Below are positions 21,519 to 58,709 of a stretch of DNA of 64,000 bases, in pieces. Position numbers and translations under genes: made by a program. Under the pieces are notes generated by a model. The model saw only the letters and a list, made by a program, of their open reading frames with translations, did not search any database and was not told the DNA's origin. The stretch spans positions 231,671-295,670 of the forward strand of contig CAZDWN010000002.1 of the NCBI GenBank assembly GCA_964509365.1, in the 5' to 3' direction. This stretch comes from an uncultured Pseudomonadales bacterium. Its GTDB lineage: Bacteria > Patescibacteriota > Microgenomatia > UBA1400 > UBA12028. Position 1 is the stretch's first letter; each line of letters starts with the position of its first letter.

Positions 21519-21592
21519 GCTCCCGTGGTCTAGCGGTCTATGACGACTCCCTGTCACGGAGTAAACCACCGGTTCGAATCCGGTCGGGAGCG
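21519..21592 (+). tRNA. tRNA-Asp (anticodon GUC)
   Basis: Anticodon stem ACUCC/GGAGU with loop CUGUCAC. T-arm ACCGG-UUCGAAU-CCGGU. Acceptor GCUCCCG/CGGGAGC. Confidence 0.8.
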
Positions 21593-21708
21593 CAGCGTAA
21601 TAATCCTGCCAAGCAGGATTAAACGCTGCTGGTACGTTTAAATTCGAAGAATTTATTACGTACCGCCTCTCTCTTCCCCAACCCTTGTTTGCTAGAATAT
21701 ATTTTGGT

Positions 21709-21969
21709 ATGTACTATACCTACGTTTTGCAGAGTCAAAAAAACAAAAGCCTCTACATTGGATACACCTCCAATCTTCAAAAAAGATTTCAACAACACAA
21801 TAATGGAGAAAGTCAGTCAACAAGGCCATTTCGACCATATGTTCTTATCTTCTATGAAGCTTTTCTCAAACAAAAAGATGCAAAGAATCGAGAAATATAT
21901 TTAAAAGGCGGATACGGCAGAAGGAGTCTAGCTGCTTTGCTCAAAGATTTTTTATCCTCTCCCTCTTGA
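21709..21969 (+). CDS. GIY-YIG nuclease domain protein (about 86 aa)
   Basis: YTYVLQS...LYIGYTSNLQKRFQQHN, the GIY-YIG core. Confidence 0.65.
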   Translation: MYYTYVLQSQKNKSLYIGYTSNLQKRFQQHNNGESQSTRPFRPYVLIFYEAFLKQKDAKNREIYLKGGYGRRSLAALLKDFLSSPS

Positions 21970-39840: not shown

Positions 39841-39927
39841 TCAAAAATTTCTCACTTTGCATTGTCATCCTGGTTTATCCAGGATCGATCTCTGTTTGGA
39901 ATGATTCCGGACGTGCCGGAATGACGG

Positions 39928-44807: not shown

Positions 44808-45179
44808 TTACTTCTGGATTATAGAGAGAAAGTTACCGTCTGGATCTTTAAACCAAGCGATGACTGGCTTGCCGCGAGCGATTCCTTTTTCATCAGTCTT
44901 CATCCATTCAGTATCATACTGCTCAAAGGTGACGCCTTTTGAGATGAGTTCATCGACTGTCTCATCGATATTATCGACTGGAAAGTTGAGGACAGTATAG
45001 GTCGCTGGTTCATGATTTGGTTTTGGATAGATGAAGACGTGGGCTCCAGTGGAAAAATGAAGTTCAAGCCCTTCTGGTTGCTCTTTGACATCGAGGCCGA
45101 GTGTATCCTTGTAAAAGGTTTTCGCCTTGGCGATATCTTTGACAGAGAAGCCGGAGAAAGCAGGAGAATTTTGTAGCAT
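44808..45179 (-). CDS. VOC/glyoxalase family protein
   Basis: Small beta-alpha-beta-beta-beta protein with a glyoxalase-like sequence. AAGGAGG ribosome-binding site. Confidence 0.6.
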
Positions 45180-45212: not shown

Positions 45213-45284
45213 GTCATCCTGAGCAGCCAAGCCTGCCTACCGGCAGGCAGGTGTATTCACTTGGCGGTCGAATGGATAGTTTTC
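45213..45284. repeat. Structured repeat element copy A: GTCATCCTGAGC, a hairpin with a TACC loop, then GGTCGAATGGATAGTTTTC
   Basis: Shares both termini with copies B and C. The nested inverted repeat is AGCCAAG-GCCTGCC-tacc-GGCAGGC-...-CTTGGC. Confidence 0.7.
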
Positions 45285-45847
45285 TCTGTAATTTCTGAAG
45301 CTTTCATATTTTCATGATCATTTTTGTGATCACGAATGTAAAACTCTTTGGTCATCAAACGTTTGAAGTCTGATACGCGCGATACAAACTCAGTTTGATT
45401 GAGATGATCGAGTTCGTGTTGGATGACCCGAGCAAGGATCCCATCGCAGGTCAATTGAAATTTGCCTCCATTCTCATCGCATGCTTCGACTGTAATTTTC
45501 TGTGACCGCTTCACTGGACCAAATATTTGAGCATTGCTGACACTCCCACAACCTTCGAAGATGACGTTTTTCTTCGTTGACGATTGTACAATTTTTGGAT
45601 TGATATACACCCTGAAGATATCACTTTGGTTTTTGGGTCGGGATTCAGTCTCCCTTGGTTCAGTCACAAAGATCTGGTAGTTTTCGCCGATTTGTGGAGC
45701 TGCCATGCCGACAAGCTCTTCTTTGATCATCGTATCGCGAAGATCAGCGATCACATGCTGGATTTTCGGATCATGAAAATCAGTCACCTGTTTATTTTCT
45801 GCGTGTAACTTTGGATCCCCGATTTGGACAGTTTGACGAATGGACAT
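45257..45847 (-). CDS. def: peptide deformylase (the C-terminal 10 codons are encoded by repeat copy A)
   Basis: GMAAPQIG, EGCGS and HELDH motifs. Confidence 0.85.
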   Translation of the reverse strand: MSIRQTVQIGDPKLHAENKQVTDFHDPKIQHVIADLRDTMIKEELVGMAAPQIGENYQIFVTEPRETESRPKNQSDIFRVYINPKIVQSSTKKNVIFEGCGSVSNAQIFGPVKRSQKITVEACDENGGKFQLTCDGILARVIQHELDHLNQTEFVSRVSDFKRLMTKEFYIRDHKNDHENMKASEITEKTIHSTAK

Positions 45848-45848
45848 A

Positions 45849-46490
45849 TTATTTAAATCCGTGCTCAAATATTGCTTCGGCTAATTTCTGGTGCCCAGCA
45901 CTATTCCAGTGCACACCATCTACATCACTTGATTCGACTAGGATTGCAGCGTCAATAAAGCTGCAGTTCTCTACTCTTTGCGACATCGGTTCGTACAGTT
46001 GAGCCAATTTTTCGGACTTCTCTTTCGCACCCGCATAGAGTTCAGGCCGTACCTCTTTTACAATTGGAGGAGAAATGAGAATAATTTTTGGCTTTGGTAG
46101 AGCGACATTTGCACAAAACGCATCGACTTTCTGAATCAACTGTTCCATGCCTTTTCCAATTTGCTCTGCAGAGCGGTTGTACTTAGTCTTCATATCATTC
46201 GTTCCAAGCATGATGATGAGCACATCGATGGGATTATGTGTCTCAAGAATTGGCATAAACAGCTTAAGTCCATTTCGCATTGGTTTTGATTGGTCGGGAT
46301 CATCGAGGTCAATCGTTCGGCTATTGAGTCCTTCCTCGATAATCTCATAGGCGGTACCTAGCTGTTCTTGAAGGATGCCAGTCCAGCGCACTGAAAGTGG
46401 ATACCGTTCGGTCTTTGAACCAGGAATTTTTCCCCATGTGTTTGAGTCGCCAAAACAAAGTACTCGCTTCGCGTTCACATTTGTATTCAT
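45849..46490 (-). CDS. SGNH/GDSL hydrolase
   Basis: FGDSNT block I and GTND block. Confidence 0.7.
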   Translation of the reverse strand: MNTNVNAKRVLCFGDSNTWGKIPGSKTERYPLSVRWTGILQEQLGTAYEIIEEGLNSRTIDLDDPDQSKPMRNGLKLFMPILETHNPIDVLIIMLGTNDMKTKYNRSAEQIGKGMEQLIQKVDAFCANVALPKPKIILISPPIVKEVRPELYAGAKEKSEKLAQLYEPMSQRVENCSFIDAAILVESSDVDGVHWNSAGHQKLAEAIFEHGFK

Positions 46491-50311: not shown

Positions 50312-51589
50312 TTATCTCCCTTGTCTTAGGAATGCAGGGATATCAAACTCATCATCCAGATCATCAGGCTTGCGCTTGGCAGGCTCTGGCGCAGCCACCG
50401 GCTCTGGAGCTCGCTGGGTCGGTTGCGAGCTAAATTGACTTGGCATTGAGTTTTGAGGTTGAGACGAAAAGATTGATACGGGTTGCGGCGCTGGCTGCAC
50501 CGGTAGACCTTGGCTGTATTGTGTCGGCGAATTGGCTTGTGGAGGAGCGGAAAATGTCGGAGCTGGATTTGCATTTGGTTGCCCAAAGTTGCCAAATGAT
50601 CGACGCATGAATCCAGCTCCATACTTAAATCGATTTTCATCAAATCCAGTGGCGATCACCGAGATCTTGAGATTGTTTCCCATTTTTTCGTCGACCGTCG
50701 CCCCAAAAATGATATTGGCGTCAGGATCACTTGCTTGCGTGATGACTTGTGATGCCTCGGCAATTTCTTGCAGTCCCATGTCGGCGCCGCCAGTGATGAT
50801 GTACAGGACGCCCTTGGCTCCTTCGATCGAGACTTCTAAAAGTGGCGATGAGATTGCAGCTCGCGCTGCCGTCGTGGCTCGGTTTTCTCCACTCGCTTGA
50901 CCGATACCCATGAGTGCAGTGCCCGAGTCACTCATGATCGTCTTCACATCCGCAAAGTCGACGTTGACCAATCCTGGGACGGTGATGAGATCAGAGATAC
51001 CTTGGACGCCTTGCCCCAAGATATTGTCAGCAAGCCTAAAAGCATCCATGAGCGTCATCTTCCGATCGACGACATCAAGCAATCGTTGATTTGGGATGAC
51101 GATCAGCGTATCGACTTTGTCTTTGAGCAACTCGATTCCCTCTTCCGCCACCGTTCCTCGACGCACTCCCTCAAATCCAAATGGTTTGGTGACGACAGCG
51201 ACAGTGAGCGCTCCTGACTCTTTTGCTACTTCAGCGATGATAGGTGACGCTCCAGTACCAGTGCCTCCGCCCATGCCAGAGGTGATGAACACCATGTCAG
51301 TGTCGTAGAGGAGTTCTTTGATCTTCTCGCGTGACTCTTCGGCTGCTTGCCTACCGACTTCTGGATCAGCTCCAGACCCCAGTCCGCGAGTAAAATTGTT
51401 CCCAATTTGAAGTTTTGTCTCTGCTTTATTGTTCAATAGCGCTTGTACATCCGTATTGATCGCTACAAATTCGACGCCACCAATTTGGCTCGATTGAATC
51501 ATGGAGTTGATTGCGTTGCCTCCACCACCGCCGACGCCAAGTACTTTAATTTTTGCAAACTGATTATTGGTTGGTTTTACGAGTGCCAT
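50312..51589 (-). CDS. ftsZ: cell division GTPase FtsZ
   Basis: GGGTGTG tubulin signature and a Q/P/S-rich C-terminal linker. Confidence 0.95.
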
Positions 51590-51784
51590 AGAATTATTTC
51601 TAGTGTACCAGCTTTGCGCGTCTTTACTAAGAGATGTTTATGTTTTTATAGATCAATGCTTTTTATATATTCGAACAGTATTTGAGTTCGAAAAAGAGAA
51701 AAGCACAAATCATTCCCAAATTTGGCCCATCATAATCACTAAGGAAATCTTTTGCAAGAGAGAAAAAAATCTTGAATTGGCAAT

Positions 51785-51890
51785 GTCATCCTGAGCACTC
51801 AAGTGTACTCACATGAGGGTCGAATGGATAGTTTTCGAAAACTATCTTTCGGCTACCATGCTCGTGCCTCGCTTAGTCGCTCAAGATGAC
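51785..51890. repeat. Structured repeat element copy B plus an inverted partial second copy (head-to-head), intergenic between ftsA and ftsZ
   Basis: GTCATCCTGAGC, then CTCAAGTG-tact-CACATGAG, then GGTCGAATGGATAGTTTTC. This is followed by GAAAACTATC...GCTCAAGATGAC, the inverted termini. Confidence 0.7.
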
Positions 51891-51908
51891 AAACAATAAT
51901 GGAGGACG

Positions 51909-53237
51909 TTAGGGTAATAGTGATTTAAGAAGACTGACGATCTTGCCGCCAGCTCCCCCAGCTTTTGAAGAAAAGACTGAAGCCAAGCTGCCAGTATTGA
52001 ATTTCGATCCGCCACCACTTCCTCGTTTGATCTCTTCACCGCCTTTTTGTCTGCCATACAGTACCAGCCCGACCGATGCAGCGTACTGTGGATTCTCTAT
52101 GTCTTCAAGTAATCCCGTTACTCCACTTGGAGCACCGACGCGAGTCGATAGAGATAGCGTTCGTTTGCAGACTTCCACGATACCAGCAGTTTGTGCACCA
52201 CCACCAGTGAGCACGACTCCAGCGGGGACGAGTGAAAACAATTTTTCTTTTTCGAGTTCTTTTCCGACCATCTCAAAGATCTCTCGCATGCGAGGAAGCA
52301 TGATATTATCGATGACGACTTTTCGTGACAAGCGTTCGACTTCCGGGATACCGACTGCGCGCGAATCGATTTCATCTTCTCTGCGAAGTCGCTCTCGCTT
52401 TTGATCTCTCGTCTCTCCTTCTGGCCCAGGCGATGACTCGCCGACCATAGTCGACATAAAGAGTTTGAGTTTTTCGGCGGAGGCAAGACTGACGTGGGTA
52501 CCAAGGGCGATATCTTGAGTGATATGTCGAGCTCCGATCGGGAGCACACTTGAATACGTGAGCGCTCCTTCGACAAACACCGCCATTGAAGTAGATCCTG
52601 CACCGATGTCGAGTAAGACTACTCCCAACTCTTTTTCGGTCTCAGTGAGCGTAGAGAGGGACGCCGCGAGCCCACTAAACACAAATCCACTGACGCTGAC
52701 TCCCACTTCAGAGAGACATTTCGTGACATTGCGTAGCGCGATCGATGAGACCGTGATGATATGAGCCTCAGCCTCCAGACGGATTCCACTCATACCGACG
52801 GGGTCTTTGATCCCTTCCTGGCCATCGACCTGAAACTCACGAGGGATGACATGGACGATTTCACGTGAGGATGGTAAGGAGATCGCGCGTGCAGCTTCGA
52901 TCACTCGATCGACATCCGATGGTGAGATCTCCCCATCTGGATTCGCAACCGCGACGACACCCTTGGAATTTTGACTGCTGACTTGACTGCCTGAGATGGA
53001 GACGTATGCGCTTGAGACGCCAAAGCCTGCCATCCGCTCCGCGCTATCGAGCGACTGCGTGATGCATTCGATGGCATCATCAAGATCGATAATTTGACTT
53101 TTTTTTATGCCACGACTGGGAATACTCGAGATGCCTAAGACTTGGAGATTATCGTTTTCAGCCGACGTCCCGACGATGAGTGTGCACACTTTTTCGGTTC
53201 CGATGTCGATAGCGGTGAGGACGGTTTGTTTAGGCAT
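51909..53237 (-). CDS. ftsA: cell division protein FtsA
   Basis: Actin-fold motifs LTAIDIGT and VLTGGGA. Confidence 0.9.
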   Translation of the reverse strand: MPKQTVLTAIDIGTEKVCTLIVGTSAENDNLQVLGISSIPSRGIKKSQIIDLDDAIECITQSLDSAERMAGFGVSSAYVSISGSQVSSQNSKGVVAVANPDGEISPSDVDRVIEAARAISLPSSREIVHVIPREFQVDGQEGIKDPVGMSGIRLEAEAHIITVSSIALRNVTKCLSEVGVSVSGFVFSGLAASLSTLTETEKELGVVLLDIGAGSTSMAVFVEGALTYSSVLPIGARHITQDIALGTHVSLASAEKLKLFMSTMVGESSPGPEGETRDQKRERLRREDEIDSRAVGIPEVERLSRKVVIDNIMLPRMREIFEMVGKELEKEKLFSLVPAGVVLTGGGAQTAGIVEVCKRTLSLSTRVGAPSGVTGLLEDIENPQYAASVGLVLYGRQKGGEEIKRGSGGGSKFNTGSLASVFSSKAGGAGGKIVSLLKSLLP

Positions 53238-53241
53238 GTAA

Positions 53242-53964
53242 CTAATTGCTATACTGCAGGACTGGTCGATCAAATCGTAAATCTACTCGAGCAGGTTTCT
53301 GTTCTATTGTAGGGCTCACGAGAAGTAATTGTAAAGAGTGAAGCTGCTCATCCAATGATGATTGAGAGACGATGGCTGTGAGCTTTCGCTCGGTATCGAT
53401 CTCGATCTCATCACTCTTGCGGATCACAATTTGACTCACCGATGTGGTTTTACAAAACTCCAGAAGTTTAGTATACACGGCATACTTGTCTTGCGACAGC
53501 ACCGTGGCGTCATCAAGGGCAGAGAGAGTAAGATCAGTAATAGCAAGAGTTGCTGAGGGACTGCTGAGGGCGTCAGCTGGCGTCCGCTTCATGGTGAGGT
53601 CAGTGTAGACGACGGCAGCTGATTGTCGTGCTTCGTCAGTAAATATAGTCGTGAGGGTCTCTTGATTTTGAATGTGCACTTGTATCGTTTGAGGATACTT
53701 CTTACGGATAAACACTTTTTTCCCAAGTATTTTCGGAGTCATCGTCTCAAATAAAGACCTCCCTTTGTACATCGAAAGCGTATCCATAAACGACATATCA
53801 CATTGTTGGCCATCCTGCGTGCATTCGATGTTCACTACCCGAAAATAGCGATACACACTAAAAGTGCCAAGCAGAAGACAGACAAGTACCAGCCCAATGG
53901 TCGCAAGAAGCAGTGGAGAGAAATGGAACTTGCGAGATGAATGTTGGTACACACGGGAAGCCAT
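53242..53964 (-). CDS. ftsQ: FtsQ/DivIB-like cell division protein
   Basis: N-terminal TM helix, POTRA-like region, and a position between murG and ftsA. Confidence 0.6.
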   Translation of the reverse strand: MASRVYQHSSRKFHFSPLLLATIGLVLVCLLLGTFSVYRYFRVVNIECTQDGQQCDMSFMDTLSMYKGRSLFETMTPKILGKKVFIRKKYPQTIQVHIQNQETLTTIFTDEARQSAAVVYTDLTMKRTPADALSSPSATLAITDLTLSALDDATVLSQDKYAVYTKLLEFCKTTSVSQIVIRKSDEIEIDTERKLTAIVSQSSLDEQLHSLQLLLVSPTIEQKPARVDLRFDRPVLQYSN

Positions 53965-56230: not shown

Positions 56231-57436
56231 TTATGGCGCGTTCACACTTTCTATCCATTTTTTATATTGTCGACTCCGATCGGCATAATCTTCAAACAAT
56301 CCAAACGACGGTGATGCAGTCGACATGAGTACACTTGACCCGCTTGGAGTCAGTGCATACGCCTGAGTGATTGCCTCTTCCATGGACTGCACTGGTACGC
56401 ACTTGATCGAAGGAGCCAGCGCAGAGACGAGATCTGCGATGATTGCTCCTGTGGTCGGAAAGTGTATCAATGTGTGGACGGTTGATGTCGCGATTTTTGT
56501 GGCGAGCGCATCATATGATTGATGTCGATCAAATCCTCCGACGATGAGAGTCGCGAGGTGTGGCGTCGAATCGATCGCTAAGATCGTCGCTTCAGGGATC
56601 GTCGCCACAGCGTCATCGTAAAACGAAATGCCACGTTGTTCAGCCACTTTCTCCATGCGACCAGGAAGAGTCTTCAGCGTGGACAGAGCCTCTTTAATTT
56701 GTTTTTCAGATGCCTTGCGTTCGCGAGCGATCAGCACTGCTGGAATGTAATTGGTTGGCACGTCCAGAAGCTTCGCATTATATGGAATTCGTTTGGAGCG
56801 AACTTCGCTCAAGAGCGCGACGAGGTTTGGATACTCATCTCGATACAAACACAAATCAGTTTCCGTCTGTAACAGAAACAGATGTTGCTTGGCTCTGGTG
56901 TATTCTTCCATGGTGTCGTAATAGTCCAAATGATCCTGATACAGTGATGTGAAGACGGCGATATGCGTCCCGCGATGCAGTGACTCAGTTTGAAATGCGC
57001 TCATCTCAAACACTGCGGTCGTCTCGTCATCCATTTGATCGACAAAATCAAGGGCTGGTCTGCCGATATTTCCGATGAGCACTGCATGATGGCCAAGCGC
57101 GTTGAGGACGTGGGCGATCGCATGAGCCGTCGTGCTCTTGCCTTTGGTCCCAGTCACTGCGATGGTTTGCTCGCCAAACAGTTGCGTAAAGAGATCAGCT
57201 TGACTGGTCAAATAGGATTTTGACGATAGCGTGAGAAATTTTTTGGGGATGCCCGGTGATTTGAAAACGACATCTACACTTGGGACATCAAAGTGGTCTT
57301 GGTGATTCTCAAAAATGAAGACTTTGGTATGCGGGAAGTACTTTCGCAAAAACTGGGTCGTGCTTTTTCCCTCGCGACCGTTCCCGACGATTGCGATGCT
57401 TTGAGCGCTAGTGAGCCAGTCAGGAAAATCAGGCAT
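56231..57436 (-). CDS. murD: UDP-N-acetylmuramoylalanine--D-glutamate ligase
   Basis: Mur ligase P-loop VTGTKGKSTT. Position between mraY and ftsW. Confidence 0.8.
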   Translation of the reverse strand: MPDFPDWLTSAQSIAIVGNGREGKSTTQFLRKYFPHTKVFIFENHQDHFDVPSVDVVFKSPGIPKKFLTLSSKSYLTSQADLFTQLFGEQTIAVTGTKGKSTTAHAIAHVLNALGHHAVLIGNIGRPALDFVDQMDDETTAVFEMSAFQTESLHRGTHIAVFTSLYQDHLDYYDTMEEYTRAKQHLFLLQTETDLCLYRDEYPNLVALLSEVRSKRIPYNAKLLDVPTNYIPAVLIARERKASEKQIKEALSTLKTLPGRMEKVAEQRGISFYDDAVATIPEATILAIDSTPHLATLIVGGFDRHQSYDALATKIATSTVHTLIHFPTTGAIIADLVSALAPSIKCVPVQSMEEAITQAYALTPSGSSVLMSTASPSFGLFEDYADRSRQYKKWIESVNAP

Positions 57437-58709
57437 AGTGTTGTAAGAGCAATGGTAACTCTTTTCCTTCTCGTCTGTGTAGTGCCATCTTGAGTGCTTC
57501 GATTGATTCCGATCGAGTACCGACACATTCAAACGGTTTGAACTCAACTTTCCCTAGGAGTGCATCGAAATGTGGTATCAAATGATCTTGATTCATCACA
57601 TCAGATCGAAAGATGCGGGCGATTGTCTCATCATCGAGATATGCTGAGAGCAGCAACGCGACAAAGGCACATTTTCCACATTTTCCGCACCACACGTTGT
57701 CTTTTTGGCCGACATTGCAGCTATGGAACACTTCAAAATATTCTGGAAAAGTGACAAATTTTTCCATGATCGCCAGTTCATTCATCGAACGCAAATAACT
57801 AAAATATCGTGGTGAGCTCGATCCAAACAGTGAAGTGACATACGACTGAAAGTCGCGTTCAAATTCTACTGATTTGGAGTACTGGTGATTAATATCGATT
57901 CCTTCCCAAGTTCCTGTCGGCTCGTTACTGCTCGATTCATTCGAGATCGCGATCTGGGGTATCTCATACAGTCGTGCAGTCAGTATCGTAAAAAATGCGA
58001 GCACTGATGAGAATGGAGTATGCCCATTGGGATGACCTTCACTATTCAGTTCACTGAGACGAGAGTCTAGCGTTCGTGAAAAGACGATATCACCAAGTCT
58101 CGGATGTCTGGATCCAAACAGATCGATGACGTCTGCAGATGATCCCTTGAGTCCTGACCAGGTGTAGATGGCTCGACCCTCAACGGCCAGCAACTCTAGT
58201 GTCACGATCGAATCTTTGCCTCCACCTACTGGGACCAGCACAGCTGATAGCTTAGAGCTTGTAGCTTCTAGCTTGTCATCCTGAGCGACCTGGTACTCCA
58301 GGCGGTCGAAGGATAGTTTTCTTTCCGTGCTTTTGAATTCCGGCTTGAACGGCTTAATCTTATTTTGATAGAAAAATTCTCCGAGTCCAAAGTAAAACAG
58401 CTTTTGCCAAAATTGGATTTGAGTTGCATCTAAGTTCCCGCACTGGATCTCTATCGTCGGAGATAAAAATGCTTTCCAGTAGCTGGGGATCTCGGCGATT
58501 CCAAGTTGGAAGATATACTCATCGAGTTCAGGTTTTGAGATCTTTTTAACCATCTCTTCAGTCACACCTGAGATCGTATCGACAGTCGTCAGTTTCTCAT
58601 CGCCACAAGAGAACTGAAATGAGAGCTCGATTAGACCCGGCTTTAATTCGTATGAGTATGAGTCATACGAAAACAGAGGATACGTTTTTTGTAATTCTTC
58701 GAATGTCAT
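57429..58709 (-). CDS. hypothetical PP-loop (SGGxDS-type) ATP pyrophosphatase-like protein with CxxCGKC motif, inserted in the dcw cluster
   Basis: LVPVGGGKDS matches the PP-loop. A C-terminal WCGKCGKC cysteine cluster is present. The gene contains repeat copy C and a heptamer array in-frame. Confidence 0.5.
   Translation of the reverse strand: MTFEELQKTYPLFSYDSYSYELKPGLIELSFQFSCGDEKLTTVDTISGVTEEMVKKISKPELDEYIFQLGIAEIPSYWKAFLSPTIEIQCGNLDATQIQFWQKLFYFGLGEFFYQNKIKPFKPEFKSTERKLSFDRLEYQVAQDDKLEATSSKLSAVLVPVGGGKDSIVTLELLAVEGRAIYTWSGLKGSSADVIDLFGSRHPRLGDIVFSRTLDSRLSELNSEGHPNGHTPFSSVLAFFTILTARLYEIPQIAISNESSSNEPTGTWEGIDINHQYSKSVEFERDFQSYVTSLFGSSSPRYFSYLRSMNELAIMEKFVTFPEYFEVFHSCNVGQKDNVWCGKCGKCAFVALLLSAYLDDETIARIFRSDVMNQDHLIPHFDALLGKVEFKPFECVGTRSESIEALKMALHRREGKELPLLLQHYA
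58242..58276. repeat. 5 x 7-nt tandem array (AGCTGAT AGCTTAG AGCTTGT AGCTTCT AGCTTGT) abutting repeat copy C inside the PP-loop gene
   Basis: Direct reading of the sequence. It encodes KLEATSSKLSAV in-frame. Confidence 0.7.
58275..58321. repeat. Structured repeat element copy C, in-frame inside the PP-loop gene
   Basis: GTCATCCTGAGC, then CCTGG-tact-CCAGG, then GGTCGAAGGATAGTTTTC. Compensatory stem changes relative to copies A and B. Confidence 0.7.

Follow-up and report, generated by a model that had tools for sequence, protein, structure and literature searches.

Across the cell-division gene cluster of a genome of the Patescibacteria (candidate phyla radiation, CPR), a short hairpin-forming DNA element is dispersed in the manner of repetitive extragenic palindromes (REPs). 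The copies lie in a 64,000-nucleotide stretch of contig CAZDWN010000002.1, here called the window. We propose, with a probability of about three in four, that these elements belong with the hairpin repeats partnered by small single-domain GIY-YIG nucleases, as REP-like copies that are not autonomous; the class is that of the Ssn-related motifs (SRM) and the Neisseria Transformation Sequence (NTS). The most fitting place for the element is among the hairpin repeats linked to Ssn nucleases, of which it is a longer variant that had not been catalogued; it is not a new RNA family. A first-pass annotation of this DNA, which had noticed the repeat from its letters, knew of no described family with such termini. 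That remains so for the exact termini and for the long form, which fall outside the published search pattern, but the GTCA tag, the hairpin and the inverted pairs that bracket GIY-YIG genes match the SRM/NTS class, described in 2025. A literature search for the literal 12-mer GTCATCCTGAGC, with which the element begins, returned primer matches only.

Anatomy of the element and its family across phyla

The copies in the window, and two short hairpins that share their tag, are as follows.

45213-45284, plus strand: copy A, long form; GTCATCCTGAGC, a 43-nt branched middle, TCGAATGGATAG, TTTTC
51785-51836, plus strand: copy B, long form; 23-nt middle ACTCAAGTG-TACT-CACATGAGGG with one A.A mismatch
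51838-51890, minus strand: copy B′, a decayed inverted copy, tail-to-tail with B; GTCATCTTGAGC ... GCCGAAAGATAGTTTT
58275-58321, plus strand: copy C, long form; 19-nt middle GACCTGG-TACT-CCAGGCGG
39864-39886, plus strand: short GTCA-tagged hairpin, GTCATCCTGG-TTTAT-CCAGGAT-C; 7-bp perfect stem, trailing C; z -4.5; 14.8 bits
39903-39925, minus strand: short GTCA-tagged hairpin, (C)GTCATTCCGG-CACGT-CCGGAAT-C; z -2.8

In a scan of the window the 12-mer is exact at 45213, 51785 and 58275, always on the plus strand, and the right end GGTCGAA(T)GGATAGTTTTC is found in copies A, B and C, so the three loci with shared termini described in the first-pass annotation stand. A one-mismatch version (GTCATCTTGAGC) lies on the minus strand at 51879-51890; the remaining matches, with two mismatches, are background. 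All copies follow a common plan, with a GTCA tag, a short outer stem (P1) of the form ATCC(T)/(A)GGAT, an internal loop made of TGAGC and G-TCGAA, and a variable apical hairpin (P2). Read along the tagged (plus) strand, the order is 5′ GTC(A), P1 (A and three further nucleotides, which covary), the TGAGC/G-TCGAA loop and an optional P2 of any sequence. The internal loop can form U-A, tandem G.A, G-C, a bulged T and C-G, and the GTC(A) tag is present directly 5′ of the palindrome in all four window copies and in both short hairpins. Long-form elements measure 47-72 nt, copy A being about 67-72 nt; the middle of A consists of AGCCAAG/CTTGGC around GCCTGCC-TACC-GGCAGGC, with a further small hairpin at the side. 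In the Patescibacteria long form the 3′ side runs on as GGATAGTTTT, with A as the base that follows the palindrome (GGAT-A-G) and a T-run after the hairpin.

A covariance model was trained on B and C together with 11 copies taken from further Patescibacteria contigs, A and B′ being left out. Scanned with it, filters off, the 64 kb gave just four significant sites, C with 70.8 bits, B with 63.9, A with 58.0 and B′ with 38.4 (E 5e-8); the next match scored 14.8 bits. Folding as single-stranded DNA (ssDNA), compared with shuffled sequences, gave z -3.8 for A and -4.2 for C; B is weaker on its own (z -1.7), and B and B′ taken together form a single large palindrome (z about -4.8 for the plus strand, -5.0 for the minus strand). 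B′ taken alone has lost its apical hairpin and forms no stable hairpin (z +0.7), and retains P1 with ATCTT/AAGAT in place of ATCCT/AGGAT, a replacement that we read as compensatory because the right end of B′ reads GCCGAAAGATAG. The pair is arranged with its TCGAA sides facing each other, B′ being oriented opposite to A, B and C. The inverted termini noticed beside B in the first reading thus exist, as B′ at 51838-51890, but the pair is tail-to-tail and not head-to-head, one of its members is decayed, and the copies do not all share an orientation as had been thought. Nor is the apical hairpin perfect in every copy, since the stem of B (CTCAAGTG/CACATGAG) holds an A.A mismatch.

The two short hairpins at 39864-39925 form a tail-to-tail pair of their own, between convergent open reading frames (ORFs). 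That at 39864-39886 has the NTS-like form without the TGAGC/TCGAA loop, and that at 39903-39925 is very near the Neisseria NTS CGTCATTCCCGCGMAVGCGGGAATC (NTS sequence from PMC11893778); both are almost NTS-like, the trailing C included.

Further copies, for which the first-pass annotation had proposed a search, were found by scanning representative genomes with the core GTCATCCTGAGC-N8-38-TCGAA(N)GGATAG, which gave 75 genome loci in more than 12 phyla, including Bacteroidota, Patescibacteria, Deltaproteobacteria, Chloroflexi, Firmicutes, Nitrospirae, Planctomycetota, Alpha- and Gammaproteobacteria, Gemmatimonadota, Eremiobacterota and others. In nearly all of these loci the middle is a hairpin, and its sequence is unrelated between phyla. 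The middles had been called entirely different from copy to copy; this holds across phyla but not within the Patescibacteria subfamily, where they are related (CCTGG/CCAGG, CCAGG/CCTGG, CCAAG/CTTGG). The TACY cap, thought to be universal, is likewise confined to that subfamily, where the loops are TAYT, TAAT or TAAC. Outside the Patescibacteria the 3′ end runs on as GGATAGAC, followed by flank that pairs with the 5′ flank, and there is a minimal form with merely 3-4 nt separating TGAGC from TCGAA. The consensus of 142 distinct minimal copies is (T)GTCA-NNN-TGAGC-(TTG/GGAG/CTG/GTAG/GAAG)-TCGAA-N′N′N′-(T/C), in which the invariance of TGAGC and TCGAA is imposed by the selection of copies, both cores being required by the search pattern. 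The bases of the tag are conserved in 118 (G), 121 (T), 119 (C) and 118 (A) of these copies.

P1 covaries heavily. The cells that pair make up 94.1% in a set of 63 distinct minimal copies, where shuffling gives 81.4% and none of 500 shuffles reached the observed level; cells with both bases changed number 59, against 14 in shuffles, and slid controls give at most 47%. The variants include TCC/GGA, CCC/GGG, TGC/GCA, CAC/GTG, GTC/GAC, CGC/GCG and GGC/GCC, and the inner part of P1 has 11 T.G wobbles on the tagged strand against at most three non-pairs. This bias of the wobbles toward the tagged strand is the one hint, an indirect one, that the element may act as ssDNA on a single strand. In P2, three of five pairs show compensatory changes among 13 Patescibacteria long copies. 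This covariation in both stems means that the earlier inference of selection on structure was correct. The orientation of the copies with respect to neighbouring genes is random over the 75 loci (same/same 19, anti/anti 18, divergent 15, convergent 12), and most copies are intergenic.

Several variations on the element were seen among these loci. In about one fifth of the matches the 5′ half (flank and GTCATCCTGAGC) is repeated in tandem two or three times, with a period of 23-35 nt, ahead of a single 3′ half (loci L051, L011, L074, L027, L056 and L015), and at times it is the 3′ half that is duplicated; slippage at the hairpin or a nuclease-linked rearrangement could account for this. A non-coding tandem array at 1280-2440 of L020 (Marinoscillum sp.) has units of 326-366 nt, with four copies of the best-conserved segment and three of the others, and each unit carries one ATCC-type and one ATGG/CCAT-type element (GTCATGGTGAGC..TCGAACCAT), which is a compensatory P1 change within one locus. 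In a further subtype (L003, L027, L038, L064, L069, L072 and L089) the middle contains reverse complements of both cores (CCTTCGAC...GCTCAGGAC), so that the element could form either a single long hairpin or a pair of them, a hint that an inverted copy is nested within it. The long form was not found in viral contigs, where matches to the minimal pattern are mostly due to chance: 25 of 128 have a paired P1, and none of those 25 loci has an ssn-like gene.

A GIY-YIG nuclease as the probable partner of the element

Chenal et al. 2025 (Nat Commun, PMC11893778) described the Ssn nucleases and the SRM, which are inverted repeats of 20-50 nt that form hairpins. The Neisseria representative, the 28-nt NTS (CGTCATTCCCGCGMAVGCGGGAATCYRG), is a subset of the dRS3 repeats and flanks ssnA, a gene for a 94-aa single-domain GIY-YIG protein, in an NTS-ssnA-NTS arrangement that resembles an insertion sequence; flanking SRMs occur at 71% of ssnA homologs (PMC11893778). 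SsnA binds the NTS hairpin only as ssDNA and cuts a few nucleotides upstream of the tag, cleavage being governed by GTC, the three bases before the palindrome, and binding by the C after it, and the reverse strand, double-stranded DNA and RNA are not substrates (PMC11893778). In N. meningitidis the system lowers the integration of transforming DNA (PMC11893778).

A candidate partner of the same kind emerged from an unbiased all-against-all comparison of the ORFs at the 75 loci. One family recurs beside the element, in seven genomes, and it is GIY-YIG (PF01541, E 1e-14 to 1e-20); the other clusters are ABC ATPases and syntenic genes. The element-adjacent proteins are of 93-108 aa and single-domain, after trimming of repeat-derived N-terminal extensions, and in six of the seven genomes the element lies some 20-190 nt upstream of the gene on the same strand. 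At locus L033, from the Patescibacteria metagenome-assembled genome DATIJC01, that distance is about 20 nt, and long-form elements of the same subfamily as those in the window stand on either side of the nuclease gene as an inverted pair. Bracketing on both sides is also seen at L001 and L071.

Metagenomes extend this association. The 80 metagenome loci that we fetched by protein contain 87 TGAGC/TCGAA elements, compared with 5 in shuffled sequences; those on the same strand as the nuclease gene are concentrated 0-100 nt upstream of its start (15 copies) and inverted ones 1-100 nt downstream of its stop (21). When any GTCA-tagged hairpin is counted, 28 of 65 loci have one upstream, 19 have an inverted one downstream and 14 have both, where shuffles give 4, 3 and 1. 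Whether the nucleases are SsnA-like or UPF0213-like, these hairpins flank them at the same rate (66% and 70% in the two groups, in one order or the other).

For comparison the gonococcal ssnA was recovered from a chromosome filed among plasmid records; its product is 94 aa long, and nine exact NTS copies lie within 1.5 kb on either side. (In PLSDB, NZ_CP119140.1 and NZ_CP119142.1 are 2.17-Mb Neisseria gonorrhoeae chromosomes mislabelled as plasmids.) The proteins of L029, L033 and L065 are 39-41% identical to this SsnA, which is their best match, that of L033 being 41% identical over 87 aa. That the element forms a hairpin is supported by covariation and DNA folding; B and C lie within the 20-50 nt of the SRMs, and copy A exceeds them.

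Other results count against our assignment. The published SRM pattern, HGTCWYN(0-2)YYVSBRHN(0-5)WNVSBRGN(0-2)RNCYNB, passes the Neisseria NTS but misses A, B, B′, C and the minimal form, and over all the fetched loci its matches are as frequent as expected from shuffled sequence. The base after the palindrome is A in the long form, as against the C that is critical for binding by Neisseria SsnA. Four of the seven element-linked proteins (L001, L011, L037 and L071) score higher against UPF0213 (PDB 1zg2, 1ywl) than against SsnA, and a crude, score-based classification makes 47 of the 80 metagenome nucleases UPF0213-like and 30 SsnA-like. Because more than half of the element-linked nucleases are thus closer to UPF0213 than to SsnA, the enzyme partner, as judged from its sequence, may not be Ssn in the strict (cd10448) sense. 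L033 is the sole locus at which a nuclease gene accompanies the long Patescibacteria subfamily itself, no Ssn-like gene bracketed by these hairpins lies within the 64-kb window, and neither a target-site duplication, for which the first reading had suggested looking, nor any other footprint of transposition was seen at A, B/B′ or C.

The window has a single GIY-YIG gene, which was considered as the cognate nuclease and rejected:

21709-21969, plus strand: GIY-YIG nuclease gene, the only one in the window, 86 aa

Its product shares 36% identity with gonococcal SsnA across 64 aa and has no C-terminal EKQLKxWxRxxK motif. No GTCA hairpin flanks the gene; its homologs follow tRNA genes and have a different hairpin pair. 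It belongs to another, highly conserved Patescibacteria subfamily and is probably not the cognate enzyme, which again weighs against our assignment. At 21519-21969 of the window a tRNA gene is followed by two hairpins and then by this gene, and in these hairpins the outer sequences (AGCGTAA...AACGCTGC; ACGTTTAAATT..CGAAG..AATTTATTACGT) are conserved whereas the inner stems vary. This arrangement recurs in the Patescibacteria contigs L160, L161 and L165, and in L162 the tRNA gene and the GIY-YIG gene are adjacent and the two hairpins were not seen. Homologs of the protein are 64-80% identical across the phylum, many of them on contigs shorter than 1.5 kb. This looks like a second, different partnership between hairpins and a GIY-YIG nuclease, one tied to tRNA genes.

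If the elements of the window do belong to the SRM/NTS class, their behaviour may be pictured by analogy with the Neisseria work. Where DNA turns single-stranded, in replication, uptake or repair, the tagged strand would fold into a hairpin; a cognate Ssn-type nuclease would bind this through both its sequence and its shape, and would nick the strand a few nucleotides 5′ of the GTC tag, without acting on double-stranded DNA, RNA or the opposite strand. The nuclease gene is typically bracketed by an inverted hairpin pair with the TCGAA sides toward the gene. The B/B′ pair has the geometry of such a bracket minus the gene, as in a MITE (a miniature transposable element with inverted repeats) or a REPIN (a doublet of REPs). 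The copies in the window would be non-autonomous derivatives, and may have spread to permissive sites, namely intergenic spacers, gene ends and one protein linker.

A wider reading can be put forward tentatively, with rather less than even confidence: that hairpins with the TGAGC/TCGAA loop are a separate and very large specificity class of GTCA-tagged ssDNA repeats, present in most bacterial phyla including the CPR, and partnered with both SsnA-like and UPF0213/YhbQ-like GIY-YIG proteins. On such a reading recognition would depend on the tag, the geometry of P1 and the G.A loop, which would leave the apical hairpin free to vary. The function of the UPF0213 family, for which structures have been solved, has long been unknown; if the reading is true its members would be hairpin-directed ssDNA nucleases, and the repeats would account for a good part of the spurious peptides in metagenome proteomes that derive from repeats (AQDDK, VILSEAKNL and the like).

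Gene context and alternative explanations

The genes around the copies are all on the minus strand, and those next to the copies are the following.

44808-45179, minus strand: glyoxalase-family ORF
45257-45868, minus strand: peptide deformylase ORF
50312-51589, minus strand: FtsZ
51909-53273, minus strand: FtsA
57429-58709, minus strand: MurL, UDP-MurNAc-L-Ala-L-Glu epimerase (PF26298/PF26299), with its nearest named relatives in Candidatus Woesebacteria and Patescibacteria

Copy A lies upstream of the glyoxalase-family ORF and is antisense to the deformylase ORF, whose 3′ end it overlaps. In that ORF of 203 residues the Pep_deformylase domain extends to residue 170, and the last nine residues (EKTIHSTAK) and the stop are read from copy A, so that the repeat supplies the annotated C-terminus. 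Copy B occupies the ftsA-ftsZ spacer and is antisense to both genes. B′ begins 18 nt past the ftsA stop, sense to ftsA and with TTTTC after it, and the relative L078 has a remnant (GTCATCTTG) at the same relative place.

Copy C is inside the MurL ORF, again antisense, and is translated (...ERKLSFDRLEYQVAQDDKLE... / ...KLSFDRLEYQVAQDDK...) in a hypervariable linker ahead of the PP-loop motif. The closest MurL homologs, at 70-74% identity, are without it, and in L078, whose MurL is more distant (54% identical), a decayed copy of the element lies at almost the same position in the linker. In a 74%-identical relative the MurL linker holds instead a REP-like hairpin with a GTAG tag (L076 10395-10422; GTAGGGGCGTGATTCATCACGCCC on the antisense strand), translated as GVMNHAPT. 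Two different classes of ssDNA-hairpin repeat have thus entered the same permissive linker of an essential gene, and the three observations together suggest that this linker is a permissive site which palindromic elements have entered repeatedly. More generally, the relatives L076 and L077 have no copy within 10 kb on either side in the syntenic region and L078 has copies at other places, so that copies are gained and lost between relatives. GC skew in the window is too weak for naming the strand that is the lagging-strand template.

The first-pass annotation had linked the B/B′ pair to the ftsZ promoters, but the pair sits directly after the ftsA stop, and a separate conserved palindrome lies nearer to ftsZ. 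This is ATGATGGGCCAAATTTGGGAATGA, containing the palindrome CCCAAATTTGGG, which stands upstream of ftsZ at 51716-51745 on the minus strand; near-identical copies with a few substitutions (e.g. GATGACCCCAAATTTGGGATAG in L078) are present in L076 (17478-17505) and L078 (17268-17295). Distinct from the repeat, it probably serves ftsZ as a promoter or as a site for a regulator.

Three alternatives to a nuclease-linked DNA repeat were weighed. One is a cis-acting structured RNA in the transcripts of the division and cell wall (dcw) operon, be it a terminator, a processing or stabilising hairpin, a protein-binding tandem G.A motif or a terminator of antisense transcripts. The strong covariation of the stems and the conserved internal loop would suit this explanation, as would the T-run after the hairpin in Patescibacteria copies and the sense orientation of B′, directly after ftsA and followed by TTTTC. 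However, the copies at the 75 loci are randomly oriented with respect to their neighbours; A, B and C are antisense to all of their host genes, with C within a coding sequence; B′, the sole sense-oriented copy, is the one without a hairpin; and the described relatives are not bound as RNA (PMC11893778). Rfam 15 gave only six tRNAs over the whole window at gathering thresholds, nothing on the element in the copy B region at E up to 10, and nothing on the element in eight other loci with about 25 copies at E up to 1, so that the comparison with known families that the first reading had envisaged produced no match. A scan of 51500-52000 for an intrinsic terminator, with a GC-rich uninterrupted stem and a T-run, was empty. 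Because the element is randomly oriented and mostly intergenic, and has neither an Rfam match nor a terminator, we take it for a DNA-level, REP-like element and consider a cis-regulatory RNA quite unlikely. Where the first-pass annotation had left the choice between a structured RNA, a REP/MITE-like element and a protein-recognised DNA structure, the evidence therefore favours the latter two.

Still less probable is that the hairpins serve primarily as operators or autoregulatory sites of the GIY-YIG gene, in its DNA or in the 5′ untranslated region of its transcript, with the dispersed copies as by-products that have no nuclease-dependent activity. The sharp same-strand peak 0-100 nt upstream of the gene start would be expected of such sites, but the inverted peak just downstream of the stop is equally sharp, many copies are far from any such gene, and the Neisseria repeats have been shown to be sites that direct cleavage (PMC11893778).

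We give the lowest probability to a classical REP or REPIN mobilised by a REP-associated tyrosine transposase (RAYT, of the IS200/IS605 Y1 type), or a MITE derived from a DDE insertion sequence. The copies are indeed short palindromes, mostly intergenic, arranged in tail-to-tail doublets and occasionally intragenic, and the true GTAG-tagged REP in the MurL linker of L076 indicates that REP elements circulate in these genomes. REP families are, however, defined by a GTAG or a CGTC tag (Di Nocera 2013, PMC3733652), in place of which the present element has GTCA; GIY-YIG is the sole recurrently adjacent family, with no transposase cluster in the neighbourhoods of the 75 loci (complete genomes were not searched); and there are no terminal inverted repeats beyond the hairpin itself. 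Direct repeats flanking A, B/B′ and C were not found, and the flanks in other phyla are inverted, forming stem, and not direct.

Other structured elements fit poorly. Hammerheads and other small self-cleaving ribozymes were rejected, there being no CUGANGA...GAAA three-way junction and no Rfam match, as was a K-turn or box C/D-like motif, because the loop is a plain tandem G.A with a one-base bulge and lacks a 3-nt bulge. TIGR-Tas arrays have unpaired dual spacers between CCA/UG boxes and stand beside Nop-domain genes (PMC12045711), whereas in the present element the variable parts are paired and the copies dispersed.

Significance and comparison with known systems

The Ssn hairpin class appears to be broader than published, in its sequence form, in its taxonomy (Patescibacteria, Bacteroidota and many others) and possibly in its enzyme partner, which may be UPF0213-like. 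This is of interest since the published definition misses a very widespread form, and since a second clade of nucleases may share it; a conspicuous repeat of CPR genomes can now be attributed to a class of mechanism described only in 2025. For annotation it matters that the repeats lengthen or disrupt ORFs, the MurL linker and the tail of the deformylase being cases, and give rise to spurious peptides; assemblies, too, may be broken by them. Each pairing of hairpin and nuclease is, in addition, a candidate site-specific ssDNA nuclease of new specificity for biotechnology. Patescibacteria are thought to depend on imported DNA, and by analogy a system that cuts tagged ssDNA could matter for recombination in these organisms.

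Among known repeats, the Rickettsia palindromic elements (RPEs), which Ogata and co-workers are said to have described in 2000, are reportedly 100-150 bp long, restricted to Rickettsia and without a known nuclease partner, and they are said to insert in frame, and to be translated, at permissive surface or linker positions of protein-coding genes. Our element resembles them in being a palindromic repeat translated inside a gene, but here copy C is the only intragenic one. The attC sites of integrons share with it conserved ends, a variable middle, a conserved fold and recognition as a folded single strand; an attC identity was rejected, as RYYYAAC/GTTRRRY cores, a cassette array and an integrase are all absent and the context is a housekeeping operon.

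The REP/REPIN/BIME (bacterial interspersed mosaic element) systems with their RAYTs (Nunvar 2010; Bertels & Rainey 2011; Di Nocera 2013) are closer, as short tagged palindromes that act as ssDNA hairpins, form inverted doublets, flank the gene of their own nuclease (a REPtron-like arrangement) and occasionally insert into coding regions. They differ in having GTAG or CGTC tags and a HUH/Y1 transposase, where our element has GTCA and a GIY-YIG partner, and in that REP families are species-specific while the core of the element is conserved across phyla.

The nearest comparison is with the SRM/NTS system itself. The element departs from it in having the TGAGC/G-TCGAA internal loop, with its potential tandem G.A and bulged T, where the NTS has a continuous stem; in its optional apical hairpin of free sequence and its length of 47-72 nt (the NTS has 28 nt, SRMs 20-50 nt); in the A-G that follows the palindrome, where the NTS has C; and in that many of its putative partner nucleases are nearer to UPF0213 than to SsnA and its host is a CPR bacterium. 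It shares with that system the 5′ (C/T)GTCA tag which gives the repeat its orientation, the hairpin-forming palindrome that follows, and the multi-copy, mostly intergenic distribution in clusters and inverted pairs, which bracket small single-domain GIY-YIG genes on both sides.

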